64,000 bases of DNA from an uncultured Merdimonas sp. (lineage in GTDB: Bacteria > Bacillota > Clostridia > Lachnospirales > Lachnospiraceae): the NCBI GenBank assembly GCA_944378225.1, contig CALWGE010000003.1, forward strand, positions 5,455 through 69,454, in the 5' to 3' direction. The translations under genes were made by a program, and so were the position numbers. The notes below the pieces were generated by a model. The model was given only the letters and a program-made list of their open reading frames with translations, did not search any database and was not told the origin of the DNA. Positions 6,386 to 33,520 of this stretch are shown in pieces (within the stretch, counting starts at the first letter, position 1; every line of letters starts with the position of its first letter).

Positions 6386-6424
6386 TGTGCCGGACCGGAA
6401 ATGGACAGGGAAGGAGAAAAGGTG

Positions 6425-11042: not shown

Positions 11043-11081
11043 GCGACTGTCTGAGGTAAAAAACAGAGAAAGGCGGAAAGA

Positions 11082-11807: not shown

Positions 11808-11833
11808 AACATATTGAAGAGTGGCATTATGAA

Positions 11834-11862
11834 TTGACACTAAATAAAAATATAGGTAAAAT
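11834..11862 (+). promoter_or_regulatory. Sigma-A-type promoter (TTGACA-N17-TAAAAT) in front of the SDR-transketolase-ACP-ligase-LuxE-LuxC cassette
   Basis: TTGACA at 11834-11839, a 17-nt spacer, then TAAAAT at 11857-11862. Lies in the 106-nt AT-rich gap ~50 nt upstream of the GAAGGAGG RBS of the SDR gene. Confidence 0.55.
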
Positions 11863-11913
11863 CATACTGAGTCTGAAAGAAGTGTATTTATAGCGTTATT
11901 GAAGGAGGAAAAT

Positions 11914-14433: not shown

Positions 14434-14453
14434 CATTTAGGAGGGAAAATAAC

Positions 14454-14693
14454 ATGACAAACAAGGAAAAATATGTGAACGCGTTTACAGAGACTTTTGA
14501 CATTACAGAGGAAGAGACAAAGGGCCTTCAGTATTCCGGAATCTCCGCATGGGATTCTGTAGGACATATGTCCCTCGTGGCGGCTCTGGAAGATGCTTTT
14601 GATATTATGATGGACACGGATGATATTATTGATTTCAGCTCTTTTGAAAAGGGAATGGAAATACTGAGTGAGAAATATGATGTGGAATTTTAA
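14454..14693 (+). CDS. Acyl/peptidyl carrier protein (DltC-sized, 79 aa)
   Basis: A 'WDSVGHMSLVAALEDAF' phosphopantetheine-site-like DS motif in a 79-aa acidic protein, placed immediately before an adenylating ligase. Confidence 0.7.
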   Translation: MTNKEKYVNAFTETFDITEEETKGLQYSGISAWDSVGHMSLVAALEDAFDIMMDTDDIIDFSSFEKGMEILSEKYDVEF

Positions 14694-16089: not shown

Positions 16090-16127
16090 TCAGTTATGTC
16101 TATGTATGGGAAATAAGGGAGCGAAAC

Positions 16128-17219: not shown

Positions 17220-18414
17220 AGAACAGTTACAGGGAATACAGTATCTGGTGGGCAGTGAAGAAATCCTCGCGCGGCTGCCGCAGGCAAAAGCCAGAGAACC
17301 TTTTGATGAAAAAATACAGGAATTTTTAAATGCTCTTTCCAGAGCGCTGCTTTCCATGCCAGAGGCAAAATTTTATCCGGATGTTGTGACATTCGCGTTC
17401 TGGATTCGCAAATCCTCCTTAAAAAAACTGGCAGAACGTTTTGCGTCCGGGAACAGTCTGATTCAGCTGGGAAGGGGAACAGCCTTTCACATTGCCCCTT
17501 CCAATGTGGCAGTAAATTATGCATACTCCTTTGCGGCAGGTTTTATGACTGGAAACGCAAATGTGGTGCGCGTTCCGTCAAAGGATTTCCCGCAGATCGC
17601 CGTGATCAACAGGGCGGTCAATGCGGTTCTTGAGCAGTATCCGGATCAGAAGCCTTATATTTGCTTTGTGCGCTATGGGAGAGAACAGCGGATTAACGAC
17701 GTCCTTTCTGCAATCGCAGATGTCAGAATTGTCTGGGGCGGAGATAGGACCATTGCGGAGTTGAGAAAATCACCGTTAGGTCCCAGGGCATCGGAAATTA
17801 CCTTTGCAGATCGGTATTCTCTGGCCGTGATTGACAGCGATATCTATATGGCTGCGGAGAATCCGGGACGAATTGCGGATGATTTCTATAACGATACGTA
17901 CCTGACCGATCAGAATGCATGTACCAGTCCCAGAATCGTTGTATGGTATGGATCGCGGATTAGCGAGGCGAAGGAGCGTTTCTGGTCTCTTCTCCTGGAA
18001 AAGGTGCAGAAAAAATACGAATTTCAGCCAATTCAGGGAGTAAACAAACTGACAAATGTCTATCTGGCTTCAGCAGGTCACGAAGGGCTTCACGCCATTT
18101 ACTGTGGAGACAATCGTCTGGTTCGGGTCTCTCTGGAGCGTCTTTTTGAAGACCTGATGGACTTTCGGGGAGATTCCGGCTATTTTTATGAATACGACTG
18201 TCAGGATCTTCTGCAACTGCAAAACATTTGCGACGATACCCGTTGTCAGACGGTCTCCTATATCGGAGACCCCAGTATGTTCCTGCCGCTTGTAAAATCC
18301 GGCATTGCCGGAATAGATCGGATTGTTCCCATAGGCAAAACCATGGATTTTGATATGATCTGGGATGGGTATAACCTGTATGAGAGACTGACCAGGACGA
18401 TAAGCCTTATATAA
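17170..18414 (+). CDS. LuxC-like acyl-CoA/acyl-protein reductase (aldehyde-forming)
   Basis: 414 aa (404 aa if the start is ATG 17200). ALDH-superfamily-like with the candidate catalytic Cys in 'YLTDQNACTSPRIVVW'. Overlaps the LuxE-like stop by 20-50 nt. Confidence 0.6.
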   Translation: MRRYGGAAIPMQKSLDREQLQGIQYLVGSEEILARLPQAKAREPFDEKIQEFLNALSRALLSMPEAKFYPDVVTFAFWIRKSSLKKLAERFASGNSLIQLGRGTAFHIAPSNVAVNYAYSFAAGFMTGNANVVRVPSKDFPQIAVINRAVNAVLEQYPDQKPYICFVRYGREQRINDVLSAIADVRIVWGGDRTIAELRKSPLGPRASEITFADRYSLAVIDSDIYMAAENPGRIADDFYNDTYLTDQNACTSPRIVVWYGSRISEAKERFWSLLLEKVQKKYEFQPIQGVNKLTNVYLASAGHEGLHAIYCGDNRLVRVSLERLFEDLMDFRGDSGYFYEYDCQDLLQLQNICDDTRCQTVSYIGDPSMFLPLVKSGIAGIDRIVPIGKTMDFDMIWDGYNLYERLTRTISLI

Positions 18415-18444
18415 AGCAGCAAGAGAAACGGAAGGTACTGTAGA

Positions 18445-19140
18445 ATGAAACTGAAAAAATGCAGGCAGGATTTTACGTGATCTGGATTCTGATTCCCCTT
18501 TTATGGGTTTTATGTATTCTGTTTTGTAATGGGTATAAATTTGAATTATCGATTCTGATGCCTGTCTGGAACGATGAAATTGAATGGCATAAATTACAAT
18601 AGGCTATTCTATGACGTCTATGTCGGAAGGATTATGGTATGAGCTGGCGATTATACTGACGGGCAGTCTGATATGGATGGAACGTCATACAGAAAAACAG
18701 ATAAGTATTCAGGAAAGGAACTATGTGCCTATATAATTCTTGCATTTCTTCTCTTGTATGTAATTCAGGTTTATTCGATTCGACGATTACAACTATCTTT
18801 AGACAAATTGCCGAAAATGGATTCTATCATGGATTTTGTTTTTTTTCTGTAAAACTTTTTCGAAATCTGCGGACTGTAGATTTATTTTCCATATTCTTTG
18901 CAGCAACGGACACTTATGGTAAACTATCTGGTTATATTTTTTCTCCTCTTGTTTGATGTTGTTAAGAACAGGGAGCACCTTATGAACAACAGGAGTTATT
19001 ATCACGAAGCGGCATATTTTATGACAGGTTTTCTGATTGGCTACTGTACTCTCTATACAGGACAGGAATTGACGCCGGGCAGGGGAATTGAGAAAGAAAA
19101 AAGAATTCTTCAGGAGGGTTTTGGCTGAATAGGGATGCAG
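18445..19140 (+). pseudogene. AT-rich spacer carrying only short broken ORFs that encode hydrophobic peptides; likely decayed membrane-protein gene(s)
   Basis: No ORF longer than 80 aa with an RBS. Consecutive + strand fragments in different frames include 'VIWILIPLLWVLCILFCNGYKFELSILMPVWNDEIEWHKLQ*', 'MTSMSEGLWYELAIILTGSLIWMERH..*', '..LFSIFFAATDTYGKLSGYIFSPLV*' and '..NYLVIFFLLLFDVVKN..YFMTGFLIGYCTLYTGQ..*'. This is the only large non-coding gap in the window. Confidence 0.35.
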
Positions 19141-19368
19141 AACGGCGGCAGAGTCCTGTAGCCACATAGGGCAATGTAGATTTCAGATATCTTGTTTTGC
19201 CGGTGGGCTATGGCTCAAATTATATGGTAGATATTCAAATCGGTGAAACAGCAGGTTATGCAGTGATAAACTAGGGAGAGGAATATACAGAAAATCTCAC
19301 AGATGGCGGATCTAGAGTTCTTCTGGAAGATGAGTGGTTTGTGGTTTTACAGAATGAGAGGCGGAGTA

Positions 19369-20550
19369 ATGGTGAAGAATGAAAAGAAAAATCTGGTTAT
19401 AACAGTTTTTTTTGCCGTATTTCTGTTTGTGATTACCTATCAGGTTATCATGGGAGCGATTAGAAATCCATACAGCGATTATCTGGGGCATGCGGAAAAC
19501 GCGGAGTTACTTCTGAATTCCGGACTTGGGGCAGTGCTACATGAAATAGGATATCCTTTATGGGCCTTACTTACTGCGGGGATCATGAAAATATCCAGAG
19601 CACCGGCTTATGAAGCTTCCGCGATTGCGGGCGGAATTCTGAATGTTCTGACCTATGCGCTGATCTACATGTATCTGATAAAAGACCATAAGGAAGAAAA
19701 ATTTTGGATTGCTGCGTTAAGCTGGCTTCTGCTTTTGGCAGGGCCGTTTTATATTCCCTGGTATAATTCAGAGATATATGCGGGGCAGGTGACGCCAAAT
19801 ATCTGGCACAATCCCACGACTATCTGTGTCCGGCCCTTTGCTTTCGTGGCTTTTCTGACGATTCTGAAACTTTTGGAAGAATATGAGGAAGAGCAGAAAA
19901 AACTTACTGTCAGGGACTGGCTTCTGCTGGCTCTTGCCCTTGTATTTTGCAATCTGGCAAAGCCCAGTTTTGTACAGATAGCTGTTCCCGGGCTGGCGGT
20001 TTATTTAATTGTTTTGCTGATTCGCACCAGAGGAAAAGCTTTTAGCTTCTGTTTTCAGACTGCGTCAGCTTTTGTGCCCTGTGTCCTCGTGATGTTATGG
20101 CAGTTGCTGGTTTCTTTTGGAACATCCAGTTCTGCGGATGGGGGAATTGAAATAGCCTGGTTTGATGTGATGGGCGCGTCATCGCCAAGTATTCCGTTTT
20201 CCATGCTGCTGAGTTATCTTTTCCCTGTTTATGTTCTCCTGACTAATATCAGAATTGTCAGGGAGCGAGACATTCAGGTGACGTTTTTTATGTGGCTTGG
20301 CGGATTCCTGGAAGCAGCCATGCTGGCGGAGACAGGCTATCGGCGTTACCATGGAAACTTTGGATGGGGATATGTGCTGGCAACCTTTCTGGTCTATGTG
20401 GTGACTTTCCGGTATTTCCTGAAGCGCAATCAGGAATACGATTATGAAAATGTAAAAGATAGAATTCTTGTTATGGGGGGCTGGGTGATTTTTTTACTGC
20501 AGTTTGCTATAGGAATTTATTATATAAGCACGTTTTTTATTCCTGTGTAA
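19369..20550 (+). CDS. Polytopic membrane protein, ArnT/GT-C-like candidate acceptor transferase
   Basis: The ORF track starts at 19303, but ATG 19369 follows GAGAGGCGGAG. About 393 aa, very hydrophobic, with a first-loop motif 'NPYSDYLGHAENAE'. Sits directly upstream of the ArnC-like, ArnE/F-like and GtrA genes. Confidence 0.55.
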   Translation: MVKNEKKNLVITVFFAVFLFVITYQVIMGAIRNPYSDYLGHAENAELLLNSGLGAVLHEIGYPLWALLTAGIMKISRAPAYEASAIAGGILNVLTYALIYMYLIKDHKEEKFWIAALSWLLLLAGPFYIPWYNSEIYAGQVTPNIWHNPTTICVRPFAFVAFLTILKLLEEYEEEQKKLTVRDWLLLALALVFCNLAKPSFVQIAVPGLAVYLIVLLIRTRGKAFSFCFQTASAFVPCVLVMLWQLLVSFGTSSSADGGIEIAWFDVMGASSPSIPFSMLLSYLFPVYVLLTNIRIVRERDIQVTFFMWLGGFLEAAMLAETGYRRYHGNFGWGYVLATFLVYVVTFRYFLKRNQEYDYENVKDRILVMGGWVIFLLQFAIGIYYISTFFIPV

Positions 20551-20574
20551 CATTCTGGTAAAGGAGAGAAGAAA

Positions 20575-21516
20575 ATGGACATATCGTTTGTGATACCATG
20601 TTATGGTTCGGAACATACCATAGAGAAGGTTGTGACTGAACTGAGGAATACTATGGCCGGAAGGCCTGAATACAGCTATGAAATTATTCTGGTCAATGAT
20701 AATTCTCCGGACCAGGTCTGGGGCGTGATTCAGAAGCTGGCGAAGACGTATGATAATATAAAAGGAATCTCACTTGCCCGTAATTTTGGTCAGCATGCGG
20801 CTCTGATGGCCGGTTACAGGAACTGTAAGGGTGAGATTGTGGTTTCCCTCGATGATGACGGACAGACTCCGGCGGACGAGGCATTCCTTCTGATTGATAA
20901 AATTAAGGAAGGGTATGATGTGGTTTACGGATATTATCCGGAAATCAGGCAGTCACATTTCCGGATATTCGGCAGCTGGGTAAATGAGAAAATGATAGAA
21001 ATACTTCTGGGAAAACCGAAAAAGCTGAAGTGTACCAGCTATTATGCGGCCAGAAGATTTATTATTGAGGAGATGCTGCGGTATAAGAATTCCTATCCTT
21101 ATGTAGGCGGACTGGTACTGCGCAGTACAAAAAATATTGGAAATGTTCCTGTACACCATCGTGCAAGAATGGAGGGAAATTCCGGATATTCCATGGGGAA
21201 ACTGCTGGCGTTGTGGTTTAACGGATTTACAGCCTTTTCTGTGAAACCGCTTCGTCTGGCTACTGTGGTAGGCTTTTTGTGCGCTGTTGCAGGTTTTATT
21301 TATGGTCTGATTATGGTTGTGCGCAAACTGATGGGATTTACTACGGTTCTGGGTTATAGCTCTCTGATTACAGTGATTCTGTTTATTGGTGGTATTATCA
21401 TGGTTTTGCTTGGAATTATAGGAGAGTATATCGGACGGATTTATATCAGTCTGAATAACGCTCCTCAGTATGTGATTCGGGAAACGATAGGAGGCAGTGA
21501 TGAGAAAACTGACTAA
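20575..21516 (+). CDS. Polyprenyl-phosphate glycosyltransferase (GT2, ArnC/GtrB-like)
   Basis: 313 aa. Motifs 'ISFVIPCYGSEHTI', 'ILVNDNSPD', 'RNFGQHAALMAG' and 'VSLDDDGQTP', plus two C-terminal TM helices ending 'GIIGEYIGRIYISLNNAPQYVIRE'. Confidence 0.8.
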   Translation: MDISFVIPCYGSEHTIEKVVTELRNTMAGRPEYSYEIILVNDNSPDQVWGVIQKLAKTYDNIKGISLARNFGQHAALMAGYRNCKGEIVVSLDDDGQTPADEAFLLIDKIKEGYDVVYGYYPEIRQSHFRIFGSWVNEKMIEILLGKPKKLKCTSYYAARRFIIEEMLRYKNSYPYVGGLVLRSTKNIGNVPVHHRARMEGNSGYSMGKLLALWFNGFTAFSVKPLRLATVVGFLCAVAGFIYGLIMVVRKLMGFTTVLGYSSLITVILFIGGIIMVLLGIIGEYIGRIYISLNNAPQYVIRETIGGSDEKTD

Positions 21517-21859
21517 ATCGGAAAAGAAGACATTTTTGGGATTGCAGCTCCTGCTGTTGTTTTATTCACTGGGCGGTATCTGTTCCAAAATGGCGGCCGG
21601 GCAGCCGTTCCTGTCTCCAAAATATATTTTATATTATGGAATGGTGCTTTTTATCCTTGCTGTTTACGCAATCGGGTGGCAGCAGGTAATTAAGAGGCTG
21701 CCGCTGATTACCGCATATGCGTCCAAGGCAGTTACCGTCATCTGGGGAGTTGTCTGGGGAATGCTTGTTTTTAAAGAAAAAATTACCGTGACTAATGTGG
21801 CAGGCGCCGTTGTAATTATTGCGGGAATTCTTTTGGTTGTGTCGGAAGAGGAGAAATAA
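21500..21859 (+). CDS. Small 4-TM DMT/SMR-like protein (ArnE/ArnF-like flippase subunit candidate)
   Basis: About 119 aa. ATG 21500 lies 5 nt after GGAGG. Hydrophobic, EamA-half-like ('AGAVVIIAGILLV'). Immediately followed by a second protein of the same kind. Confidence 0.65.
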   Translation: MRKLTKSEKKTFLGLQLLLLFYSLGGICSKMAAGQPFLSPKYILYYGMVLFILAVYAIGWQQVIKRLPLITAYASKAVTVIWGVVWGMLVFKEKITVTNVAGAVVIIAGILLVVSEEEK

Positions 21860-21860
21860 C

Positions 21861-22190
21861 ATGGGAATTGTAATCTTTCTGGGCTCTGTGCTGGTGGCTT
21901 CGATTTCCCAGATTATGCTGAAAAAGAGTGCTGATCGAAAATACGACAGATGGATAGATGAGTATCTGAATTTCAGAGTGATTTTTGCCTATGGACTGTT
22001 CTTTTTATCCAGTCTGATGACCGTTTACGCCTATAAATTTGTTCCGCTTTCTTTAGGACCCGTACTTGAGGCCAGTGGATATATTTTTGTTTCTGTTATG
22101 GGATATTTAATTCTGAAAGAGAAGATTGGAAGAAAAAAATTGCTGGGACTTATTGTGATCATAGCAGGAATTATACTTTTTAATGTGTAA
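21861..22190 (+). CDS. Small 4-TM DMT/SMR-like protein (second ArnE/ArnF-like subunit candidate)
   Basis: About 109 aa from ATG 21861, behind GGAAGAGGAG (the ORF track starts at TTG 21819). Contains 'LGLIVIIAGIILFNV'. Confidence 0.65.
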   Translation: MGIVIFLGSVLVASISQIMLKKSADRKYDRWIDEYLNFRVIFAYGLFFLSSLMTVYAYKFVPLSLGPVLEASGYIFVSVMGYLILKEKIGRKKLLGLIVIIAGIILFNV

Positions 22191-22234
22191 AGTCTGAGGT
22201 CGCAATATATTAAGAAAACGGAGATTGAGATATT

Positions 22235-22663
22235 ATGAAAAAACTATTCGCGCAGATCATCAAATTCGGAGCCGTAGGGTTCCTGTGTTTCTTTATCGAT
22301 TATGCCATCATGGTAGGCCTGACAGAATTTGCAGGAATTCCATCCTTAGTATCCAGCGGCTGTTCCTATACCATTTCTACGGTTGTAAACTATATTCTGA
22401 GTGTCACTGTCGTGTTTGACGCGGATAAAGAAGCAAACAAGATGGTACAGTTTGTTGTGTTTGTGGTTCTGAGTCTCATTGGACTCGGTATTAATCAGCT
22501 CTGCATGTGGGGCGGCACGGCATGGCTGGAGCAGCTGATGGAGCAGAGCAGGCTTCTGGCAGGCTATTCACGTTATGCTTACATGGTAGTAAAAATCTTT
22601 GCGACTGCAGTGGTAATGGTATATAATTTCATTACAAGAAAGATTTTTATCGAGAAACACTGA
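22235..22663 (+). CDS. GtrA-family membrane protein (lipid-linked sugar translocation)
   Basis: 142 aa. 'IKFGAVGFLCFFIDYAIMVGL' and a C-terminal 'VMVYNFITRKIFI' are typical of the GtrA/GtcA family. Confidence 0.8.
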   Translation: MKKLFAQIIKFGAVGFLCFFIDYAIMVGLTEFAGIPSLVSSGCSYTISTVVNYILSVTVVFDADKEANKMVQFVVFVVLSLIGLGINQLCMWGGTAWLEQLMEQSRLLAGYSRYAYMVVKIFATAVVMVYNFITRKIFIEKH

Positions 22664-22684
22664 AAAAGCGGAAAGGAGCGGAAC

Positions 22685-24277
22685 ATGCGGAATCGAAGGA
22701 CAGCTCTTGGAATCGGACTGCTCCTGCTTATCTGCGGATGTCTGCGGTTTGTGCTTTTTCCACTGAAACTGCCTGATATGGGGACACAGACTTTGAGCGG
22801 GCAGGAGGCGGAGGCATTGATGGAAAGCCGGACTGTCACAGAGGATGAACTTCTTTCAGGACTTTTATTTGCCGGAGAGGAGCTTCCGTGGGACAGGCCT
22901 TCGGGTACCTTTTATCTGCCGGTGGACATGGATGAACCTTCCTGGGAAACAGGAACGTTCCAGGCGGCAGATTCCGGCGTGAAGATCTGGCTTCTGGATA
23001 ACCCTGCCGAGGATGATAAACAGGAGGCCGTCCGGGAGGGAAAAAGCTACAGGATTCTGGCAGTGAGCAAAAACAGTTATCGGGAATATCGTATCGTATT
23101 TACCGGACTGCCTGTTCTGACCCTGGACACGGATTCAGGAGCAGAAATCCGTTATGAAGAAATCCATGGAACCATGCGTTTTTATAAAGCAGATTCCAAG
23201 ACAGACTGGGTAACTGAAAGCGTTATGAGCGCGCATATCCGGGGAGGAAGCAGCCGCCTGAATCCGAAGAAATCCTATAAGATGACGCTGTATAAAGAGA
23301 ATCAGACAGGAAGCGGGAGCCTGCGCCAGAATCAGATGTCTTTTCTTGGAATGCGGGAGGACGACGAATGGCTTCTCTATGCCATGTACAGTGAGGATAC
23401 CAAGGTACGGGATAAGCTTTCACTGGATATCTGGAATGAGTCGGGAGCTTTACAGATTGACTCAGAAGGCTTTTACGGGTATCATATGGAATATATTGAG
23501 GTTTTCCAGAATGGCGAATACTATGGAATCTACGGACTGATGGAGCCTGTGGATTATAAGCAGCTGGAACTGACAAAGGAAAATGAGGCTCAGCCGGTGG
23601 AATATCTGTACAAGCAGAAAGATCCCGGAGTCTTTGAACTGAAAGGAAGCTGGACAGAGCAGACAGAAGAAGATTTTGATATGCTGAATACATATCTGGC
23701 GTATCTGGAGGCAGATGATGTGGAATTTGCAGAAATGATGCCCCAGCTTATTAATGTGGATAATGCGCTGGATGTCTGGCTGTATCTGCAGGCAGTTATC
23801 GGCATGGATAATATAGAGAGAAACATTTTTTATCCGACTGTCTGGGAAGAGGGAGAGTACCGGATACAGTTTATGCCCTGGGACATGGATTATACCTGGG
23901 GAAATGTACATGATTTTGACGCGGGCAACCGGACACGTTTTTCAGAAGAGATTCTGACCATGCGTATTGCCTGGAAGCTTGGAGATCGTCTGATCCTTCT
24001 GAATGTGGAAGGGGCCAGGGAAAAGATAAAGGCCCGGTGGAAGGAACTGCGTCAGACGGTGTATTCGGATGAGTGGCTGACGGAACATATAGATGCGTAT
24101 GCGCACCAGGTGGTGGATTCAGGAGCCTTTGAGAGGGATGGGGTTCGCTGGGTTAACAGCGGACATAACGGTGATTATGAGAGTCTGAAGAAACTGGTCT
24201 GTGAGAGAATGGCGTTTCTGGATGAACAGTTTGAGAATCCACTGGCCTATCTGGATTTGAAGGAGTATGTAGAGTGA
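22685..24277 (+). CDS. CotH-like (atypical kinase fold) protein with N-terminal membrane anchor, copy 1
   Basis: 530 aa. Anchor 'ALGIGLLLLICGCLRFVLF'. CotH-like blocks 'IRGGSSRLNPKKSYKM', 'DDEWLLYAMYSEDTKVRDKLSLDIWNE', 'YIEVFQNGEYYGIYGLMEPVDYKQL' and 'MPWDMDYTWG'. Confidence 0.75.
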   Translation: MRNRRTALGIGLLLLICGCLRFVLFPLKLPDMGTQTLSGQEAEALMESRTVTEDELLSGLLFAGEELPWDRPSGTFYLPVDMDEPSWETGTFQAADSGVKIWLLDNPAEDDKQEAVREGKSYRILAVSKNSYREYRIVFTGLPVLTLDTDSGAEIRYEEIHGTMRFYKADSKTDWVTESVMSAHIRGGSSRLNPKKSYKMTLYKENQTGSGSLRQNQMSFLGMREDDEWLLYAMYSEDTKVRDKLSLDIWNESGALQIDSEGFYGYHMEYIEVFQNGEYYGIYGLMEPVDYKQLELTKENEAQPVEYLYKQKDPGVFELKGSWTEQTEEDFDMLNTYLAYLEADDVEFAEMMPQLINVDNALDVWLYLQAVIGMDNIERNIFYPTVWEEGEYRIQFMPWDMDYTWGNVHDFDAGNRTRFSEEILTMRIAWKLGDRLILLNVEGAREKIKARWKELRQTVYSDEWLTEHIDAYAHQVVDSGAFERDGVRWVNSGHNGDYESLKKLVCERMAFLDEQFENPLAYLDLKEYVE

Positions 24278-25917
24278 AGAGACGGACGGCTCTTTTTCTG
24301 AATTTAATTCTGGCAGCATGCTGCCTGACATTTCTGTTTTTGTGGCCTTTGATTTGCGGGCCGATTGGCTATCGTGCAGGCACAGAGGACGAGATTAAAG
24401 AGCTTCTTGCCACACATACGGAAGCAGAAGAACCCTTTTTTACCGGCCTGGCTTTTTCAGGCGAGCAGCTTCCTTATGACATTGAGACAGCGACCTTTTA
24501 TCTTCCCCTGGATATGGACACAGATAAGTGGGAGACAGGGGAGCTGACAAGTACAGCTTCTGATGTGAGTTTGCTGTTTGAAGAGGAGTTTACCGCTTTT
24601 GAAAAACAGGAGGCTATCAAAAACGGCACACGATTTCTGTTTTATGCTGTGCGGGGACAGGAATATCAGAAATGCTGGCTGACAGCCACAGGTCTTCCGG
24701 TGATTTCGATTGAAACAGAGGCTTCGGCTGATATGGAGGTGTTTGGCGGAAGCGCGTATTTCTGGGATAGTCAGACAAAAAAAGACTGGACTTCTTCCAG
24801 CATTCTGGAAGCCAATATCCGGGGAAATACCAGCCGTACCTATGAGAAAAAAGGATATAAGCTGAATCTGAAAAAGCAGAACAAAAAAGGAGAGATAGTA
24901 GAGGATAAGAAGTCTCTTTTTGGACTCAGAAATGATGATGAATGGTTTCTGAATGCCATGTACAGTGATTCTTCCAAAATCCGGGATAAACTGAGCGCAG
25001 ATCTGTGGTCTCAGATTGGAGCTGTACAGGAGGAATTTCCGGAAGCTTATTTTGGTACCCGGATGACATATGTAGAAGTATTTTTCAACCATGAATACTG
25101 GGGATTGTATGTCCTGATGGAGCCGGTAGATTCCAAACAGCTTGACCGGACGCAGGAGGGAGCAGGAGCCGAGGAGGAATACTCCTATAAGTCTGTAACT
25201 CCTCAGAGCGAGGCGACGGAAGAACTTCTGGATCAGGAAACTTATGGTGAAACTCTTTCAGGATTTGAACTGAAGGGGACTTATTCTGTAACAGACAGGA
25301 GTTCCTGGGAGCCGTTGCTGTCTTATCTGGAACTGAGAGATCTGACCAGTGATCAGGAATTTGCTGAAAAAGCACCTGAGCTTGTGGATCAGGAGGGGGC
25401 TCTGGATATCTGGATCTATCTCCAGGCGGTTTTGGGTATCGACAATCGCGGAAAAAACATGTATTATGTGGCTAAGAACCGAGGAAATTTCCGGAAAATT
25501 TATTTTGCGCCCTGGGACATGGATATTACATGGGGCGATGCTCTGAGTGAGGGTACAGACGGAAAGATTTGGGATATAAGTCTCTATACGCCGCTTTATT
25601 CTGAGCGAATCAACTGGAGCTTTGGTGATCGCCTGCTTGAACTTGATGTGAGCAATTCCCGGGCTTATGTAAGTGAAAGATGGAAAGAACTTCGCAGCGG
25701 AGTTCTTTCAGATGAAACTCTCACAGATACAATAGACAGTCTGCTTCATCAGGTGCGTGATTCAGGTGCGCTGACCCGGGATGGACAGCGCTGGCCCGAC
25801 AGTAATTCCGGGCAGGATTACGAATTGTTTAAACGTATGGCGCTTTACCGGATGGGAATTCTGGATTATTATTTTGACGGAAATCTGGAAGAATACCTGG
25901 GACTGGGGTATGAGTAG
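24274..25917 (+). CDS. CotH-like protein with N-terminal membrane anchor, copy 2
   Basis: 547 aa. The GTG start overlaps the upstream stop. Anchor 'ALFLNLILAACCLTFLFLWPLI'. Blocks 'IRGNTSRTYEKKGYKL', 'DDEWFLNAMYSDSSKIRDKLSADLW', 'YVEVFFNHEYWGLYVLMEPVDSKQL' and 'APWDMDITWG'. Confidence 0.75.
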   Translation: MKRRTALFLNLILAACCLTFLFLWPLICGPIGYRAGTEDEIKELLATHTEAEEPFFTGLAFSGEQLPYDIETATFYLPLDMDTDKWETGELTSTASDVSLLFEEEFTAFEKQEAIKNGTRFLFYAVRGQEYQKCWLTATGLPVISIETEASADMEVFGGSAYFWDSQTKKDWTSSSILEANIRGNTSRTYEKKGYKLNLKKQNKKGEIVEDKKSLFGLRNDDEWFLNAMYSDSSKIRDKLSADLWSQIGAVQEEFPEAYFGTRMTYVEVFFNHEYWGLYVLMEPVDSKQLDRTQEGAGAEEEYSYKSVTPQSEATEELLDQETYGETLSGFELKGTYSVTDRSSWEPLLSYLELRDLTSDQEFAEKAPELVDQEGALDIWIYLQAVLGIDNRGKNMYYVAKNRGNFRKIYFAPWDMDITWGDALSEGTDGKIWDISLYTPLYSERINWSFGDRLLELDVSNSRAYVSERWKELRSGVLSDETLTDTIDSLLHQVRDSGALTRDGQRWPDSNSGQDYELFKRMALYRMGILDYYFDGNLEEYLGLGYE

Positions 25918-25974
25918 AAAGAGCAGGAACAGGGGAAACCAGACAGGTTTCCTGCGCCGGAAGGGAGAGAGAGC

Positions 25975-26670
25975 GTGGAGTATCGGAACGAACTTAAATA
26001 TGTAGTGTCGGAAACACAGCTTGTACTTCTGGAGAATCGGATTCGGAATCTGATCCGGCCAGACAGACATGCAGGCTCAGACGGCACATATCGAATCCGC
26101 AGCCTGTATTTTGATGACTGCGAAAATACCTGTTATCAGGAAAATGAAATGGGAACAGATCCACGGGAGAAATTCCGCATTCGTATTTATAACAGCGATG
26201 CGGGGAGAATCAGTCTGGAACTGAAGAAGAAGCAGCACAGCATGACGCAGAAAATTTCCTGCTTTCTGACGGAGGAGCAATGCAGAGAACTGATGGCAGG
26301 TCGGCCTCTTCCGGTAGATCCGTCTTATCCGCCGGTACTGCAGAAACTGAATCTGCTGATGCGGACCAGACTGATGAAGCCGCGGGTGATAGTGGAATAT
26401 GACAGAACTCCTTTTGTGGAGAAGCTTGGAAATACAAGAGTGACTCTGGATCGGAATATCCGATCTTCAGACGCCGTGTTGTCATTTCTGGAAAAGGACA
26501 TTCCGGGGCGGCCGGTGATGCCTGTGGGGAAACAGATTCTGGAGGTCAAGTACGATGAATTTCTGCCGGATCATCTGTACCGGAACCTGCAGCTTTCCAG
26601 CATGAGACAGACAGCTTTTTCAAAATATTATCTTTGCAGAAGGTTTTCGCTTACCGGAATTCGAGCCTGA
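25975..26670 (+). CDS. VTC-domain (polyphosphate-polymerase / triphosphate-tunnel-like) protein
   Basis: 231 aa, GTG start behind GGAAGGGAGAGAGAG. Motifs 'EYRNELKYVV', 'YRIRSLYFDD', 'REKFRIRIYN', 'ISLELKKK', 'VEYDRTPF', 'RVTLDRNI' and 'ILEVKYDEFLP' give the alternating basic beta-strand pattern of the VTC/CYTH tunnel. Confidence 0.7.
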   Translation: MEYRNELKYVVSETQLVLLENRIRNLIRPDRHAGSDGTYRIRSLYFDDCENTCYQENEMGTDPREKFRIRIYNSDAGRISLELKKKQHSMTQKISCFLTEEQCRELMAGRPLPVDPSYPPVLQKLNLLMRTRLMKPRVIVEYDRTPFVEKLGNTRVTLDRNIRSSDAVLSFLEKDIPGRPVMPVGKQILEVKYDEFLPDHLYRNLQLSSMRQTAFSKYYLCRRFSLTGIRA

Positions 26671-26758
26671 ATCGGAAAGCCGGGAGCTGAAATGTGGAAT
26701 AACCACTGTAGAAAATACAGTGTATATTCATAGAGAGAAATGGGAGGAACAATGAATA

Positions 26759-27433
26759 ATGGGATTTCAGGATGTATTTAAAAATTCATTTCTTGAGGGT
26801 TTTACAGGTATGGACATATCAGCCGGACGAATTATGGCTACCTTTACGGTAACCTGCATTCTCGCCTGCTATATTTTCCTTATTTACCGACTGATGACAA
26901 GAAGAGCCTTCTATTCCAAGAGCTTTAATGTATCAATGGCAGCTATCGCTGTGATTACGGCAGCAATTATTCTGGCTATGCAGTCTAATCTGGTGATTTC
27001 TCTTGGTATGGTCGGTGCATTGTCTATTGTCCGTTTCCGTACGGCAATTAAGGATCCTATGGACCTGGCATTCCTGTTCTGGTCTATCAGTGTGGGTATC
27101 ATCTGCGGTGCAGGCCTTTATGAGGTAGCTCTTCTGACCTGTCTGGTTGTGACGGTTCTTGTACTTGTGCTGGAAAATATTCCTGCGTCCAGAGCTCCGA
27201 TGATGCTGGTGGTAAATCTTTCAGATGCGGATCAGGAGTCCCGGGTACTGGATATAGCAAAAAAGTACAGCCGCTTTTATAAAGTGCGTTCCCGCAATAT
27301 TTCCGGGGGAAGTATGGATATGATTGTAGAGGTACGGGTGAAGGAAGAAAGTGCGCTGATAAAAGAAGTCTGCGCCCTTCCTGTGGTACAGTCCGCATCC
27401 CTGATCGCTCATGACGGCGAAGTGACCTTCTAG
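26759..27433 (+). CDS. DUF4956-like membrane protein (partner of the VTC-domain protein)
   Basis: 224 aa. Four or five TM helices followed by a soluble C-terminal domain. Signature-like 'LSIVRFRTAIKDPMDLAFLFWSISVGIICGAGLY'. Confidence 0.65.
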   Translation: MGFQDVFKNSFLEGFTGMDISAGRIMATFTVTCILACYIFLIYRLMTRRAFYSKSFNVSMAAIAVITAAIILAMQSNLVISLGMVGALSIVRFRTAIKDPMDLAFLFWSISVGIICGAGLYEVALLTCLVVTVLVLVLENIPASRAPMMLVVNLSDADQESRVLDIAKKYSRFYKVRSRNISGGSMDMIVEVRVKEESALIKEVCALPVVQSASLIAHDGEVTF

Positions 27434-27442
27434 GAGGCTTTT

Positions 27443-28897
27443 ATGGGAAATCTGACCGGACTATGGGGACGCGGCTGGCGTTTCGTGAGGAAGTACGGAA
27501 TTCTGAGCCTTTATCGAAAGATGAAGGAAAGGCAGGAGCGGAACCGGGCGGAGAAAGGGTATGAATCCTGGCTTTTTCAGAAACTTCCGGGAGAGGAAGA
27601 GACGCAGAGCCAGAGAAAAAGAGAATTTCCATTTGCGCCTGTGATCAGCGTGCTTGTGCCTGTTTATGAGACGCCGGAAAATTTTCTGCGCCAGATGCTG
27701 GAGTCTGTGCTGAAGCAGAGTTATGAAAAACTGGAACTGTGCATCACGGATGGCAGCCCCTCGGATCGTGTGAGACGGGTTGTGGAAGAATATGCTCTGC
27801 AGGATTCAAGGATACGGTATCAGAAGCTTGAAAAAAATCTGGGCATTGCCGGAAATACAAATGCAGCTCTGGAGCAGGCAGCAGGAGCTTATGTGGGTCT
27901 TCTGGATCATGACGATCTGCTGCTTCCGGGAGCTCTGTATGAAATTGTACAGGCTTTGAATGAGGGAGAACCGGCTGATGCAGTCTATACGGATGAGGAT
28001 AAGCTTGATCCGGAAAATAACCGGCATTTTCAGCCGCACTTTAAACCTGATTTCAATCCGGAATATTTAAGAAGCAATAATTATATCTGCCACTTCTTTG
28101 TGGTGAAACGGGAGATAGCTCTCAGGACAGGCGGATTTCGTGAAGAGTTTGACGGGGCGCAGGATCATGATTTTATTTTCCGGTGTACAGAACAGTCGCG
28201 AAAAGTGATTCATATTCCGAAGGTTCTTTATTCCTGGCGATGTCATGCCGCATCTACGGCGTCCAATCCTGAGAGCAAACTTTATGCTTATGAGGCAGGA
28301 AGACGGGCAGTGGCAGCTCATCTGGACAGAACAGGACGTACCGGCAGAGTTCTGAATACGGAAAATTATGGATTTTTTCGGGCGCAGTATCCCGGGAGTT
28401 CCGAATTATTAATAAAATCTTTCGAAAATTTTGATGGACATGCAGATGTAAATGTTGTATATTATGATAAGGCATGTAATAATTCTGTAACAATTTCTGG
28501 GAAGAAGAATTATGTGCTTTTTACCTGTGTCCGCGACGCGAAAGTGAATGCAGGTTTCTTTTCTGAACTTATGGCCTGCTGTAACCGGCCGGAAACAGGA
28601 CTGGCCTGTGCGAGGGTTTACGGAAAGAACAGACGGCTTTGCGGAGATATTCGTATGGCCGGTGTACAGGATCCGTTTTCAGAAGGAATGAGAGGAAAAA
28701 AAGCAGGATACTCTGGTTATTTTCACAGAATTCTTCTGCAGCAGGAACTGGAAAGACCTACGGACTGTTTCATGATTCGCAGGGAGCTTCTGGGAGAAAA
28801 TAAAGAGGTGTCAGTTCCTGAGTTGTGGAAACAGCTGAAGAAGGAAGGATACTTCATCTATTACGAGCCCTGGGCGGTGATGTATGAGAGCAGATAG
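27443..28897 (+). CDS. Family-2 glycosyltransferase (paralog of the N-terminal half of ORF 20-1741)
   Basis: 484 aa. Motifs 'ISVLVPVYETPENFLRQMLESVLKQSY', 'LLDHDD', 'NYICHFFVV' and 'GAQDHDFIFR'. Confidence 0.8.
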   Translation: MGNLTGLWGRGWRFVRKYGILSLYRKMKERQERNRAEKGYESWLFQKLPGEEETQSQRKREFPFAPVISVLVPVYETPENFLRQMLESVLKQSYEKLELCITDGSPSDRVRRVVEEYALQDSRIRYQKLEKNLGIAGNTNAALEQAAGAYVGLLDHDDLLLPGALYEIVQALNEGEPADAVYTDEDKLDPENNRHFQPHFKPDFNPEYLRSNNYICHFFVVKREIALRTGGFREEFDGAQDHDFIFRCTEQSRKVIHIPKVLYSWRCHAASTASNPESKLYAYEAGRRAVAAHLDRTGRTGRVLNTENYGFFRAQYPGSSELLIKSFENFDGHADVNVVYYDKACNNSVTISGKKNYVLFTCVRDAKVNAGFFSELMACCNRPETGLACARVYGKNRRLCGDIRMAGVQDPFSEGMRGKKAGYSGYFHRILLQQELERPTDCFMIRRELLGENKEVSVPELWKQLKKEGYFIYYEPWAVMYESR

Positions 28898-29843
28898 CAG
28901 TGTATCTATCGTGATACCTAATTATAATGGGATAAAGTTCATCCAGAAATGCCTGGAAGCATTGCTCGCAGATGCGCCCCAGGCTGAAATTCTGGTAGTG
29001 GATAATGGTTCTGCAGATGGAAGCCGTCAGCTGGTGGAAGAGAAGTTCCCCGGGGTACGGCTTATCGCTCTTGATCAGAATTATGGTTTTCCCCGTGCAG
29101 TGAATGAGGGAATTCAGGCATCATCCCGTCCCTATGTGATTCTGCTGAATAATGATACACAGGTTCTCCCGGGATTTACAGATGCGCTTACGGATGCGCT
29201 GACAACGGACAGACATGCATTTTCAGCTCAGGCAAAGCTTCTTTGCCTTTCTGATCCGGAGAAAATTGATGATGCAGGAAATTTTTACTGCGCTCTGGGC
29301 TGGGCTTATGCGAGAGGAAAAGACAAGCCGGCGGCATACTATGAAGAACCGGGAGAAGTGTTTGCGTCCTGTGCAGGAGCAGCAATTTACCGGAAAGAGC
29401 TTTTTGAAATAACAGGCTTTTTTGATGAAGCGCATTTTGCTTATCTGGAAGATATTGATGTGGGATGGAAAGCCAGAATTGCAGGGTACAGGAATCTGTA
29501 CGTTCCGGCTGCAAAAGTTCTCCATGCAGGGAGCGGCACCAGCGGATCCCGGTATAATGAATTTAAGGTGCGTTTAAGTTCGCGAAATAATATTTATCTG
29601 ATTTGGAAAAATATGCCGATTTTGCAGATAATACTGAATTTTCCTTTTCTTCTGGCGGGATTTGGAGTGAAGACTCTTTTCTTTTCAAGAAAGGGAATGG
29701 GAGGAATCTATGTCAGAGGACTGGGGGAAGGTTTTCGTCTGTGCAGGAGAGGGCGGAAAGTGAAGTTCCGCTGGAAAAACCTCCCCGCTTATGGAAAAAT
29801 CCAGATGGAATTATGGTTCAATACAGGAAAGAGATTTGGGTGA
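28884..29843 (+). CDS. Family-2 glycosyltransferase
   Basis: 319 aa. Motifs 'VSIVIPNYNG', 'VVDNGSADGS', 'LLNNDT' and 'YLEDIDVGWKARIAGY'. Overlaps the upstream gene by 14 nt. Confidence 0.8.
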   Translation: MRADSSVSIVIPNYNGIKFIQKCLEALLADAPQAEILVVDNGSADGSRQLVEEKFPGVRLIALDQNYGFPRAVNEGIQASSRPYVILLNNDTQVLPGFTDALTDALTTDRHAFSAQAKLLCLSDPEKIDDAGNFYCALGWAYARGKDKPAAYYEEPGEVFASCAGAAIYRKELFEITGFFDEAHFAYLEDIDVGWKARIAGYRNLYVPAAKVLHAGSGTSGSRYNEFKVRLSSRNNIYLIWKNMPILQIILNFPFLLAGFGVKTLFFSRKGMGGIYVRGLGEGFRLCRRGRKVKFRWKNLPAYGKIQMELWFNTGKRFG

Positions 29844-29849
29844 GAAAGA

Positions 29850-31259
29850 TTGATTAAGGACAACCAGCGTCATTTTAACAGGCTGCATGTGGTGCTGGAC
29901 GCATTTGTTATCGCTGCGTCTTATATGCTGGCCTGGTGGGTGCGATTCCCTCTTCAGAATAATATATCGGGTATTGTATTCCGGCATTACATGAGCATGC
30001 TGCCCTTTTTGTTTGTGCTTTATATAGGACTGTACGCTTTGTTTGGTCTTTATACGACAAAGAGCGTGCGCCGTAAGAGGGTTGAAGCCGAGAAGATTGT
30101 ACAGGCCAATACGATTGGTCTGGTTCTGTTCATGGCCGCGCTGTTCTTCTCCCGGGAAAATACAGAGTTTACGACAAACTATTCCCGAATGATGCTGGCA
30201 TGGTTTTATGTTTTCAATATCGGTCTGGAATGCCTGTTTCGCAATTTTATCCGTCTGGCTCTCCGCCATATCCGGGAAAAGGGCTTCAATCAGAAACATA
30301 TGATTCTGGTAGGATACAGTCGGGCGGCGGAAGAATATATTGACCGTATCAAGGCTAATCCGGAATGGGGCTATGATATTATGGGAATCCTGGACGATAA
30401 TGTTCAGCCAGGCATGAAATATCGTGGCGTGGAGGTCTTTGGACGGACAGAAGGAATTGAAGAGACACTGGAGAATGCCAAACCGGATGAGATTGCCATT
30501 ACTCTGGGATTGAGTGAATACTCGAAACTGGAGCATATTGTGGCAGTATGTGAGAAATCCGGCGTGCATACAAAGTTTATTCCGGATTACAATAACATTA
30601 TACCGACACGTCCTTATACAGAGGATCTGATGGGACTGCCGGTCATTAACATCCGACACGTCCCGTTGACAAACACGTTTAACGCTTTTCTGAAGCGTTC
30701 CATGGATTTGGCTGGGAGTGTCTGTGCTATTATACTGTTTTCGCCCGTAATGCTTCTGACGGCCGTGGCTGTCAAAATGACTTCGCCAGGCCCGCTTATA
30801 TATACCCAGGAGCGTGTAGGACTTCATAACAAGACATTCCGGATGTATAAATTCCGCTCTATGGATGTCCAGTCTCCCAAAAAGGAGAGAGGCGCCTGGA
30901 CGGTACCGGACGATCCGAGAGTGACAAAAGTGGGAAAAATCATACGGAAGACGAGCATTGACGAGCTTCCGCAGCTGTTTAATATATTAAAAGGGGATAT
31001 GAGCCTGGTAGGCCCGCGGCCGGAGCGTCCGTTTTTTGTGGAAAAGTTCCGGGAAGAGATCCCGCGTTACATGATTAAACACCAGGTGCGTCCGGGTATG
31101 ACCGGCTGGGCACAAATCAATGGCTACAGAGGAAACACCTCAATTCGAAAGCGAATCGAGTATGATCTCTATTACATTGAAAACTGGACGCTGGGGTTTG
31201 ATATAAAAATCTTATTTCTGACAATTTTCAAGGGCTTTATTAACAAAAATGCCTATTAA
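29850..31259 (+). CDS. Priming polyprenyl-phosphate hexose-1-phosphate transferase (WbaP/WcaJ/EpsL-type bacterial sugar transferase)
   Basis: 469 aa, TTG start. N-terminal TM helices, a central NAD-like linker, and a C-terminal catalytic block: 'KRSMDLAGS', 'FRMYKFRSM', '[40 protein letters not shown]', '[11 protein letters not shown]' and 'DLYYIENW'. Confidence 0.88.
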
Positions 31260-31286
31260 ATGTTGGGAAACAGAAAGGGTTATATT

Positions 31287-32504
31287 ATGGCAACCAATAC
31301 GAAAGGCAGAAATGCAGGAAAAAGAAACTCGGGAAACGGAAGACATAAGGAACATAGAACGCACAGAGAGCGGGATGAGTATGGCGAGTATAAACTCAGC
31401 CGGAAAGAGCAGAAACGTCTTAAGAAGGCAAAACGCAGAAGAAAGCTGATTGCCATCCTGGCTGTGGAATTTGTATTGATTCTTTTTCTGGGTATGGGCG
31501 TGTTTGCTTTGAGCAAGCTGGGCAAACTTCAGGATCTTGGTGTAAACCCGGATGACATTGGTATGAATGAGGATATTGATGAGGATACTGCAGAGCTCCT
31601 GAGCGGATATACCAATATTGCTCTCTTTGGTCTTGGCTCGAGAACGCCGGGAAGCCTTGGAGCGGGCGAATTGAGCGATACGATTATTATCGCCAGTATC
31701 AACAATGAGACCAAGGAAGTAAGGATGATATCTGTCTACCGTGATACTTATCTGAACCGTGCAGACGATACTTATGGTAAATGTAATGCTGCCTATTCCA
31801 AAGGCGGTCCCAAACAGGCCATTGAGATGCTGAATACCAATCTTGATCTGAACATCAAGTATTATGTCAGCATAGACTTTACTGCACTGATAAAAACCGT
31901 CGACCTGCTTGGCGGTGTGGAGATAGATGTTAAACCGGAAGAAGTTGACGCAATCAACGGATATATGTACGAGACTACAGAGATTGCCGAGAAAGCAGAC
32001 GATGACTCTATCAATCCTTACAACAGCTTTATCGAAGAACCGGGACTTCAGACACTGTATGGCGTTCAGGCTACAGCTTACTGCCGGATTCGTAAGGTCG
32101 GAAATAATGACTATGAAAGAACCGAGCGTCAGCGCCGCGTCATTGAGCAGATTGTAGAGAAGTCCAGAACAGCGGGACTTGGCAAGATTAATGCAATGAT
32201 TGATGAGGTATTTCCGCTGGTGGCAACAAATATACCCAAGACGACTCTGATCGGTATGGCAGCCAGCATGATGTCTTATGAACTGGGCGAGACAAGCGGT
32301 TTCCCCACATACAGAGTGGATAATATGAAGATGGATGGCCAGGCTGTGGTTATCCCTGCAGATCTGGTGGCAAATGTAACCGAGCTTCATCGGTTCCTCT
32401 TTGATGAAGAGGATTATTATCCGTCACCGACCGTTCTGGATATCAATGAGAAAATCATTTCGGATACGGGTGTAAAAGCACAGGAAACAGCCGGTACAGA
32501 ATAA
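31287..32504 (+). CDS. LytR-CpsA-Psr (LCP) family glycopolymer-peptidoglycan ligase
   Basis: ATG 31287 sits behind GAAAGGG (the ORF track starts at 31260). Basic cytoplasmic tail, one TM helix, and an LCP core: 'NIALFGLGSR', 'SDTIIIASIN', 'ISVYRDTY' and 'RIRKVGNNDYERTERQRRVI'. Confidence 0.85.
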   Translation: MATNTKGRNAGKRNSGNGRHKEHRTHRERDEYGEYKLSRKEQKRLKKAKRRRKLIAILAVEFVLILFLGMGVFALSKLGKLQDLGVNPDDIGMNEDIDEDTAELLSGYTNIALFGLGSRTPGSLGAGELSDTIIIASINNETKEVRMISVYRDTYLNRADDTYGKCNAAYSKGGPKQAIEMLNTNLDLNIKYYVSIDFTALIKTVDLLGGVEIDVKPEEVDAINGYMYETTEIAEKADDDSINPYNSFIEEPGLQTLYGVQATAYCRIRKVGNNDYERTERQRRVIEQIVEKSRTAGLGKINAMIDEVFPLVATNIPKTTLIGMAASMMSYELGETSGFPTYRVDNMKMDGQAVVIPADLVANVTELHRFLFDEEDYYPSPTVLDINEKIISDTGVKAQETAGTE

Positions 32505-32516
32505 GGCCGAATATAA

Positions 32517-32551
32517 ATGGACGGGGAAGAGATCTGCCTCGTCCATTTTTT
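32517..32551 (+). terminator. Rho-independent terminator closing the glycan operon
   Basis: ATGGACGGGG (32517-32526) pairs with CCTCGTCCAT (32537-32546), including one G-U pair. A TTTTTT run follows. Confidence 0.7.
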
Positions 32552-32572
32552 CTTGAAGGATGGGAGAATAGA

Positions 32573-33508: not shown

Positions 33509-33520
33509 AAGGAGAACGTT

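Follow-up and report, generated by a model that had tools for sequence, protein, structure and literature searches.

A 64,000-nucleotide stretch of DNA from an uncultured Merdimonas sp. (assembly GCA_944378225.1, contig CALWGE010000003.1, positions 5,455 to 69,454; this whole stretch is referred to here as the window) includes four consecutive open reading frames (ORFs) on the + strand, at window positions 22685-27433. From the ORF list and Pfam matches, they encode two CotH-family kinases (CotH-A and CotH-B), a VTC-domain protein and a membrane protein of the DUF4956 family. The core of this cassette is a triad, namely one or more exported CotH kinases, a cytoplasmic Vtc4-like polymerase and the DUF4956 membrane protein, and the window contains a version of this triad with a duplicated CotH, located inside a wall-glycan operon of GtrA, GT2, PGT and LCP genes (GT2, family 2 glycosyltransferase; PGT, polyprenyl-phosphate priming transferase). 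The explanation that we favour, tentatively and at somewhat less than an even chance, is that polyphosphate (polyP) made by the VTC protein is exported via DUF4956 and used by the anchored CotH proteins on a surface substrate.

The cassette and its occurrence in other genomes

The genes for CotH-A (22685-24277, 530 aa) and CotH-B (24274-25917, 547 aa, GTG start), both of them exported or anchored members of the CotH family of atypical kinases (Pfam PF08757), overlap by 4 nt at the CotH-A stop and CotH-B start. They are followed by the gene for a stand-alone Vtc4-like triphosphate-tunnel domain that is predicted to be a cytoplasmic polyphosphate polymerase (25975-26670, 231 aa, PF09359) and by the DUF4956 gene (26759-27433, 224 aa, PF16316). 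A preliminary description of the window, made from the sequence alone, had proposed four tightly packed + strand genes encoding CotH, CotH, VTC and DUF4956 proteins. Both the gene arrangement and the family calls were confirmed, as the Pfam profile matches were all well above the gathering cut-offs.

Species-representative genomes were searched using a pattern scan with VTC as the anchor, which recovered at least 593 VTC relatives, and the best 80 loci (L001-L080) were analysed. These loci come from Lachnospiraceae, Oscillospiraceae, other Clostridia, one Bulleidia-labelled bin and Treponema. DUF4956 is the next same-strand gene downstream of VTC in 76 of the 80. Among the remaining four, three end at a contig edge and only L050 is truly without DUF4956; there, CotH directly follows VTC (5104-7477), and this is the sole such locus with adequate flanks. 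The gap between VTC and DUF4956 is mostly -25 to +60 nt, and overlap is frequent. A CotH gene adjoins in 70/80 loci, in Bacillota and in Treponema, and often overlaps VTC or DUF4956. This count was obtained with iterated hidden Markov models (HMMs), single-sequence phmmer having placed CotH beside only about half of the loci. Because the CotH iteration had not converged, drift was checked using Pfam, and all 81 candidates (81/81) were found to be true CotH. The association of these genes is far beyond chance, and the co-localization of the families in other genomes, on which the preliminary description depended, is therefore borne out.

Ten loci lack an adjacent CotH, but four of these are truncated contigs. 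In the other six, which have adequate flanks, the VTC-DUF4956 pair is present without CotH in the fetched flanks (L076, positions 9983-11382, L032, L037, L053, L062 and L077). The pair in L076 sits in a glycan locus with GT2, PGM, GtrA, PGT and LCP genes, and a link between the pair and glycan genes is therefore possible without the kinase.

The commonest architecture is CotH-VTC-DUF4956 (44 loci). VTC-DUF4956-CotH was found in six loci, CotH-CotH-VTC-DUF4956, as in the window, in four, CotH-VTC-DUF4956-CotH in a further four, and a version with three leading CotH genes in one, this being L060 (3122-10109), where three tandem CotH genes precede VTC. Duplications of the whole triad were also seen, in tandem in L051 (8075-11390 and 17739-20665) and L068 (6052-12379), and as an inverted pair in L028 (253-7282). 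Copy number is therefore evolutionarily labile, both for the whole module and for CotH. In the Treponema loci (L033, L045, L046, L052 and L073), CotH is shorter (approximately 410-450 aa) and divergently encoded upstream of VTC, with a second CotH copy directly downstream in L052 and L073. The triad therefore crosses phyla, though with a different gene arrangement.

Genes for GT2, PGT, LCP or GtrA proteins were found within 8 kb in only 23/80 loci, and 17/80 are beside PGT/LCP genes. In the remaining 57 loci, the same-strand neighbours are spread over 143 Pfam families, none of which was found in more than eight proteins, and no conserved fourth partner was found among them. Pel families are absent from the 25 commonest neighbour families listed for the loci. 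With DUF4956 in 76, CotH in 70 and glycan genes in 23 of the 80 loci, the core is therefore best described as a portable three-gene module. Within the lineage to which the window belongs, however, the order GtrA-CotH(x1-2)-VTC-DUF4956-GT2-GT2-PGT-LCP-GT2 is conserved across genera, with identities down to 35-69 %. GtrA is retained in L001-L005 and L013, and the downstream GT2-GT2-PGT-LCP-GT2 genes in L001-L005, L008 and L013. Within this syntenic lineage, CotH evolves fastest and DUF4956 is among the slowest.

Sequence features of the three protein families

The VTC protein matches Pfam PF09359 with E=4.3e-37 (128.4 bits, above the gathering cut-off) and includes no hydrophobic segment, consistent with the soluble protein proposed originally. 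Single-sequence and narrow-profile searches against the PDB found no match, and only a broad profile of 43 VTC family sequences reached the catalytic domain of yeast Vtc4 (3g3q and 8i6v, E=3.2e-11). K8, R68, R70, K84, K93 and Y142 in the window VTC align with K200, R264, R266, K281, K294 and Y359 in Vtc4, and R144, R155, E190, K192, S216 and K217 align with R361, R373, E426, K428, S457 and K458. None of the twelve varies among 43 diverse homologs that share 36-58 % identity with the window VTC. In Vtc4, the triphosphate is coordinated by K200, R264, R266, K281, R361 and K458, together with S457 and Y359, and mutation of any one of these eight residues lowers cellular polyP; E426 binds Mn2+, and the only residue to differ in Vtc2 and Vtc3, which are inactive, is K458, with Ile or Leu in its place (10.1101/2023.01.27.525886). 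The presence of the complete Vtc4 residue set, including K217 (equivalent to K458), marks the window VTC as Vtc4-like, and it is predicted to be an active polyphosphate polymerase.

Stand-alone VTC proteins of approximately 230 aa form 4,891 clusters (50 % identity) at E<=1e-3. Fusions of VTC with DUF4956 or CotH were not found in the 150 best VTC representatives or in the 120 best DUF4956 matches. Two long VTC ORFs, in L028 and L056, are upstream-start artefacts overlapping CotH.

CotH-A and CotH-B match Pfam PF08757 with E=7.7e-39 (134.5 bits) and E=2.2e-42 (146.1 bits), respectively (cut-off 23.8 bits). They are paralogs, with 39 % identity over the full length. The basic N-terminus of CotH-A (MRNRR) is followed by a single hydrophobic segment at residues 7-25, which is signal-anchor or lipobox-like, and that of CotH-B (MKRR) by a single hydrophobic segment at residues 5-23 that includes a lipobox-like LAAC motif. 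As a signal-anchor and a lipoprotein signal lead to the same placement, both CotH kinase domains lie outside the membrane, as the preliminary description had it. An N-terminal hydrophobic segment was found in 79/81 triad-linked CotH proteins. In CotH-A, the anchor is followed by a region of approximately 150 aa and then by the CotH domain (184-511). The corresponding pre-kinase regions of CotH-A and CotH-B gave no Pfam match at E values up to 10. Subsets of the 81 CotH proteins carry extra surface-type Pfam domains, namely Fn3_assoc, CHB_HEX_C, InlB B-repeat and LTD.

CotH is an established Ser/Thr protein kinase, and mutation of D228 or D251 in Bacillus subtilis CotH leaves the kinase inactive (PMC7821199). 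A homolog search using CotH-B gave only sequences that are approximately 80 % identical. CotH-B matches the Bacillus cereus CotH structure 5jd9, a profile of 81 CotH sequences aligns to the same structure with E=9.1e-29, and the catalytic residues were mapped onto B. subtilis D228 and D251 via this alignment. CotH-A keeps the catalytic-loop Asp (GMDNIERN), PWDMD and KKSYK, and CotH-B keeps D390 (the catalytic-loop Asp), D415 and D417 (WDxD) and K192 (the Lys of KKxY). A strict regular expression, PWDxDxxW, matched only 24/86 CotH ORFs and was replaced by counts of the alignment columns, in which Asp is found at the D390, D415 and D417 positions in 75, 80 and 74 of the 81 homologs, respectively. 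Both window copies thus retain the kinase catalytic residues, as had been supposed, and are predicted to be active kinases.

Some other triad-linked CotH proteins have Gly, Ala, Tyr or Glu in place of the catalytic-loop Asp (L028:253-2283, L079:8024-9940 and 11393-13252, L080:8060-9985, L050:5846-7477 and L074:11364-12971). These copies may be pseudokinases, or may reflect shifts in the alignment. Asn replaces the second Asp of WDxD in six other triad-linked copies.

The DUF4956 protein matches Pfam PF16316 with E=4.5e-14 (53 bits, cut-off 30.6), and its homologs, of which the search returned at least 8,000 candidates, are annotated PF16316. It is a multi-spanning protein, as described previously, with five transmembrane (TM) helices at about residues 22-49, 52-73, 77-93, 100-117 and 121-140. 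Scores against MgtC models were below the curated thresholds in both Pfam (24.5 bits, cut-off 31.4) and NCBIfam (20.8 and 17.4 bits, cut-offs 214 and 255), and the protein is not assigned to the MgtC/SapB family. The AlphaFold2 (AF2) model made from the single sequence was poor (pLDDT 57), and the model made using a multiple sequence alignment was moderate (pLDDT 70). The latter shows the five helices and, after them, a C-terminal beta-alpha-beta-beta-alpha-beta domain, which is ACT-like (residues 148-217). Foldseek searches with this model gave weak matches for the C-terminal domain only, to ACT, NikR-C and BMC-H folds, and the tail gave no Pfam match at E values up to 10. The family shares an invariant core, SLGMVGALSIVRFRTAIKDPxDLxFLFW...GIxCGA. 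R92, R94, K98 and D102 show no variation, and at least 90 % of the sequences keep R44, R48 and K54. By the positive-inside rule, we infer a cytoplasmic position for the two basic loops and for the ACT-like domain. The basic residues are reminiscent of the basic rings found at the mouth of the polyP channel in yeast (10.1101/2023.01.27.525886).

The locus surrounding the cassette

Directly upstream of CotH-A is a gene for a GtrA-family small membrane protein (22235-22663, +, PF04138, E=1.1e-20). Downstream of DUF4956, all on the + strand and identified using Pfam, are two GT2 genes (27443-28897 and 28884-29843), a gene for a WbaP-like polyprenyl-phosphate priming transferase of the Bac_transf family (29850-31259), an LCP ligase gene (31260-32504) and a third GT2 gene (32573-33508). 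The flanks are as given in the preliminary description, and so is the context: with envelope glycan genes as neighbours and anchored CotH copies, it is one of vegetative envelope glycan synthesis and not of sporulation. The run begins at 19303 with a 415-aa polytopic membrane protein, for which no Pfam family was found, followed by an ArnC/GtrB-like GT2 whose C-terminal part contains TM helices, and by two small, overlapping EamA genes (ArnE/F-like); these genes (19303-22190, +) were assigned using Pfam and TM counts. They probably constitute a module for flipping of lipid-linked sugars and extracytoplasmic glycosylation, and are syntenic only in L001 and L002, the closest genomes. Intergenic spacing ranges from -41 to +88 nt for the genes across 19303-34762, and no convincing intergenic terminator was found within the operon run that includes the cassette.

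Approximately 890 nt (18415-19302) without a convincing + strand ORF separate this run from a LuxC-like gene, and are likely to contain its promoter and leader. Rfam gave no match in this segment, and neither Rfam families nor tRNA genes were found close to the cassette. The sole Rfam match in the window is a glycine-GGAnGA riboswitch (RF03166, 63158-63416, +, 137.9 bits), and no tRNA genes were found in the 64 kb.

Upstream of the 19303 run is a large block of sugar-modification and glycosyltransferase genes. The part of this glycan locus at 9915-18414 includes a DegT-type aminotransferase, a 241-aa ORF with no Pfam match, an SDR, a split transketolase (N and C halves), an AMP-binding enzyme, a LuxE-like acyl-protein synthetase and the LuxC-like acyl-CoA reductase, which suggests a pathway for an uncommon sugar or acyl modification. 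At 4640-9918, a DUF6020 membrane protein and GT2 genes are followed by a series of three adjacent ORFs (569-603 aa) that have 6-10 predicted TM segments and no Pfam match; they may encode glycan polymerases, or transferases of the GT-C type, that are as yet uncharacterised. Elsewhere the window contains chromosomal housekeeping genes (pyrimidine and purine synthesis, ClpC, RadA and SecA), and its GC content is uniform.

Relationship to known systems and possible function

The cotH gene, a polyphosphate polymerase gene and a DUF4956 gene, along with DUF4832, have been reported as accessory to the pelDEADAFG genes, with which they are contiguous, in streptococci, clostridia and bifidobacteria, and CotH was suggested to be a possible regulator of Pel through phosphorylation (Whitfield 2020, PMC7112168). 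In Streptococcus intermedius, the corresponding proteins were modelled as a secreted CotH-FN3 protein (SIR_1594), a VTC-like protein with catalytic residues present (SIR_1593) and an MgtC-like TM protein with an ACT domain (SIR_1592) (bioRxiv 2024; mBio 2025, PMC12345266). Deletion of SIR_1592 increased Pel and deletion of SIR_1594 decreased it, with aggregation cut by >50 % in both cases (PMC12345266). The Clostridium perfringens locus NELoc-2 also includes VTC, a 222-226-aa membrane protein and CotH beside a chitin-synthase-like glycosyltransferase (PMC2879425). The module has therefore already been noticed in print, in 2020 and 2025, with mild deletion phenotypes, and the claim that it was undescribed must be withdrawn. 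What is new here is the duplicated CotH and the LCP-type wall-glycan context.

The S. intermedius authors stated that the synteny of CotH, VTC and DUF4956 was not found outside pel loci (PMC12345266). However, neither pel genes nor a DUF4832 hydrolase are among the Pfam matches of the main ORFs of the window (20-62702), and the neighbours in the survey are PGT, LCP, GT2, GtrA or unrelated genes, so this statement no longer holds. Like the window cassette, the pel accessory cassette contains the same three families, contiguous and in the same order (CotH, VTC, DUF4956), it is contiguous with an extracellular glycan pathway, and its CotH is secreted or anchored, its VTC soluble and its third protein MgtC-like with TM helices and an ACT-like tail. 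They differ in that the window locus is of the PGT/GT2/LCP/GtrA type, without pel or DUF4832, and its CotH is duplicated and has no FN3 domain.

The comparison with the eukaryotic VTC complex (yeast Vtc4/Vtc3/Vtc1) is mixed. Both have a catalytic tunnel domain with the full triphosphate- and Mn-binding set and the Vtc4-specific Lys, both pair it obligately with a membrane component, and export from a bacterium is topologically equivalent to import into the vacuole lumen. However, the window VTC lacks an SPX domain (Pfam found only VTC in its 231 aa), its catalytic and membrane parts are separate polypeptides, and its membrane partner, DUF4956, has five TM helices and an ACT-like tail where the yeast complex has 3-TM DUF202-type subunits. 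The membrane parts share no structural or sequence similarity, and coupled translocation in the window would be by analogy only. The window proteins have their kinase domain in common with Bacillus CotH (B. cereus 5jd9/5jda and B. subtilis), including the Asp of the catalytic loop and the metal-binding Asp residues of WDxD. The Bacillus enzyme, however, works within the mother cell, where the coat proteins CotB and CotG are its targets, while the window copies have an N-terminal export or anchor segment, carry the extra pre-kinase region and are in a vegetative envelope operon. Their anchors and envelope glycan neighbours place them outside the spore-coat CotH system. Similarly, MgtC/SapB proteins (Salmonella MgtC) resemble DUF4956 in having five TM helices and a small cytoplasmic ACT-like domain, with a weak match in the TM region, but DUF4956 has its own invariant RFRTAIKDPxD motif and MgtC is not linked to VTC or CotH. 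An analogy, and only that, is available in the secretory-pathway kinases Fam20C and Fam20B, which have an atypical kinase fold, act outside the cytosol on secreted proteins or glycans and use ATP imported into the Golgi lumen.

From the family membership, topology, retained catalytic residues and linkage across phyla, we infer a route for polyP synthesis, its export, its use as a donor and the substrate. As the Vtc4 catalytic residue set is complete, VTC would use ATP to synthesise polyP on the cytoplasmic side of the membrane. Because the two genes are near-obligately adjacent, VTC would work on, and probably dock to, a DUF4956 oligomer, whose cytoplasmic loops with invariant Arg and Lys would receive the polyP. 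DUF4956 would then pass or present the polymer outward, by analogy with the eukaryotic VTC complex and not by homology, and the anchored CotH ectodomains would modify a surface substrate, either with the polymer as phosphoryl donor or by attaching it. In the lineage of the window, this substrate would probably be the wall glycopolymer attached by LCP, or else a protein handling this glycopolymer. The effects of CotH or DUF4956 deletion on exopolysaccharide level and aggregation in S. intermedius are counted in favour of this explanation. In its strongest form, VTC and DUF4956 would be a bacterial two-protein polyP synthase-translocase, independent of the eukaryotic pore, that feeds CotH as the first protein-kinase-fold enzymes to use polyP as a phosphoryl or polyphosphoryl donor, and this we regard as doubtful.

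Several points weigh against polyP export to CotH. We know of no protein-kinase-fold enzyme that uses polyP as a donor. The DUF4956 membrane domain gave no Foldseek match in the PDB, including to the VTC chains 7ytj and 8i6v, and the DUF4956 model is of only moderate confidence (pLDDT 70), with a topology that relies on the positive-inside rule. In the literature that we searched, we found no biochemical work on bacterial VTC-domain proteins or on DUF4956. The six adequately flanked loci without CotH indicate that the VTC-DUF4956 pair can function without the kinase, and as only 23/80 loci are near glycan genes, a glycan substrate is not general. For SIR_1593, the VTC homolog, deletion was described with no change in aggregation or Pel level, unlike its two neighbours, and the S. 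intermedius authors proposed that polyP stays cytoplasmic (PMC12345266). Finally, MgtC, the closest family to DUF4956, is known as a regulator of ATP synthase and PhoR and not as a channel (as summarised in PMC12345266). Overall, the families, topology, catalytic residues and linkage put forward in the preliminary description have held up, but its novelty has not: in addition, a channel role for DUF4956 would be by analogy only, as this protein is unrelated to the yeast membrane subunits, has no PDB match for its membrane domain and has the sub-threshold MgtC as its nearest sequence relative, and a wall glycopolymer as the target is weakened by the scarcity of glycan genes within 8 kb and the heterogeneity of the other neighbours.

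The cytoplasmic polyP proposed for S. intermedius and the regulatory role of MgtC are also what would be expected if VTC and DUF4956 were a cytoplasmic unit for polyP and phosphate homeostasis, with a loosely linked surface kinase and polyP that stays inside, a reading that we consider rather unlikely. DUF4956 would then be an MgtC-like anchor or regulator in which the ACT-like domain senses a metabolite, CotH would use another donor, such as released ATP, and it would be co-located only through shared regulation of envelope or biofilm traits. The weak MgtC match and C-terminal ACT-like fold of DUF4956 fit this, as do the few loci with VTC and DUF4956 but no CotH, and the opposite shifts in Pel level on deletion of the CotH and DUF4956 homologs (PMC12345266). 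However, co-regulation poorly explains an exported kinase that is adjacent in 70/80 loci across phyla, often with overlapping genes, the invariant basic cluster on the DUF4956 loops suggests the handling of a polyanion rather than the sensing of a small molecule, and the eukaryotic VTC catalytic domain is always coupled to membrane transit (10.1101/2023.01.27.525886).

A kinase that needs no polyP is also conceivable, though quite unlikely in our view. CotH would be an ATP-dependent extracytoplasmic protein-kinase switch that phosphorylates glycan-pathway proteins at the surface or in the membrane (such as LCP or the polymerase and export components) and so tunes output, in the role that Whitfield et al. 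proposed for Pel (PMC7112168), with VTC and DUF4956 in some other supporting role. The established Ser/Thr kinase activity of CotH (PMC7821199), the catalytic residues kept in both copies, the stable synteny with PGT/LCP genes in the lineage of the window and the lowered Pel on CotH deletion in S. intermedius (PMC12345266) are all consistent with this, but no ATP source is evident outside the membrane, the near-obligate linkage to VTC and DUF4956 is left unexplained, and most triads are away from glycan genes. The least likely of the readings considered here is that surface polyP is itself the end product, the VTC-DUF4956 pair exporting polyP and CotH covalently anchoring whole chains, and not single phosphates, to a wall polymer or protein to give an anionic layer. 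It shares the linkage and topology evidence with polyP export to CotH as a donor, and it would suit both the CHB_HEX_C, Fn3_assoc, LTD and InlB repeats on CotH, which point to binding of a surface polymer, and the variation from one to three CotH per locus, which would fit enzymes that differ in their acceptors. However, this evidence does not separate anchoring from simple phosphorylation, and the chemistry is without precedent in the kinase fold.

Bacterial polyP is attributed to PPK1 and PPK2. The Vtc4-like polymerase family comprises thousands of clusters and is nearly always accompanied by one membrane protein and, in most cases, by an exported kinase. If the pair does export polyP to CotH, this would be a third bacterial polyP route and would explain how kinases work outside the bacterial cell, where ATP is scarce. 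It would also define, for gut Firmicutes, streptococci, bifidobacteria and spirochaetes, a new type of surface phosphorylation, and this modification would bear on biofilm formation, on aggregation and on interaction with the host. In S. intermedius the module affects aggregation that depends on Pel (PMC12345266), and it is present in the necrotic-enteritis locus NELoc-2 in C. perfringens (PMC2879425). More immediately, the module is not Pel-specific, so that the published idea of 'Pel accessory genes' gives way to that of an envelope module that is general and portable, and its occurrence away from Pel widens the choice of experimental hosts.

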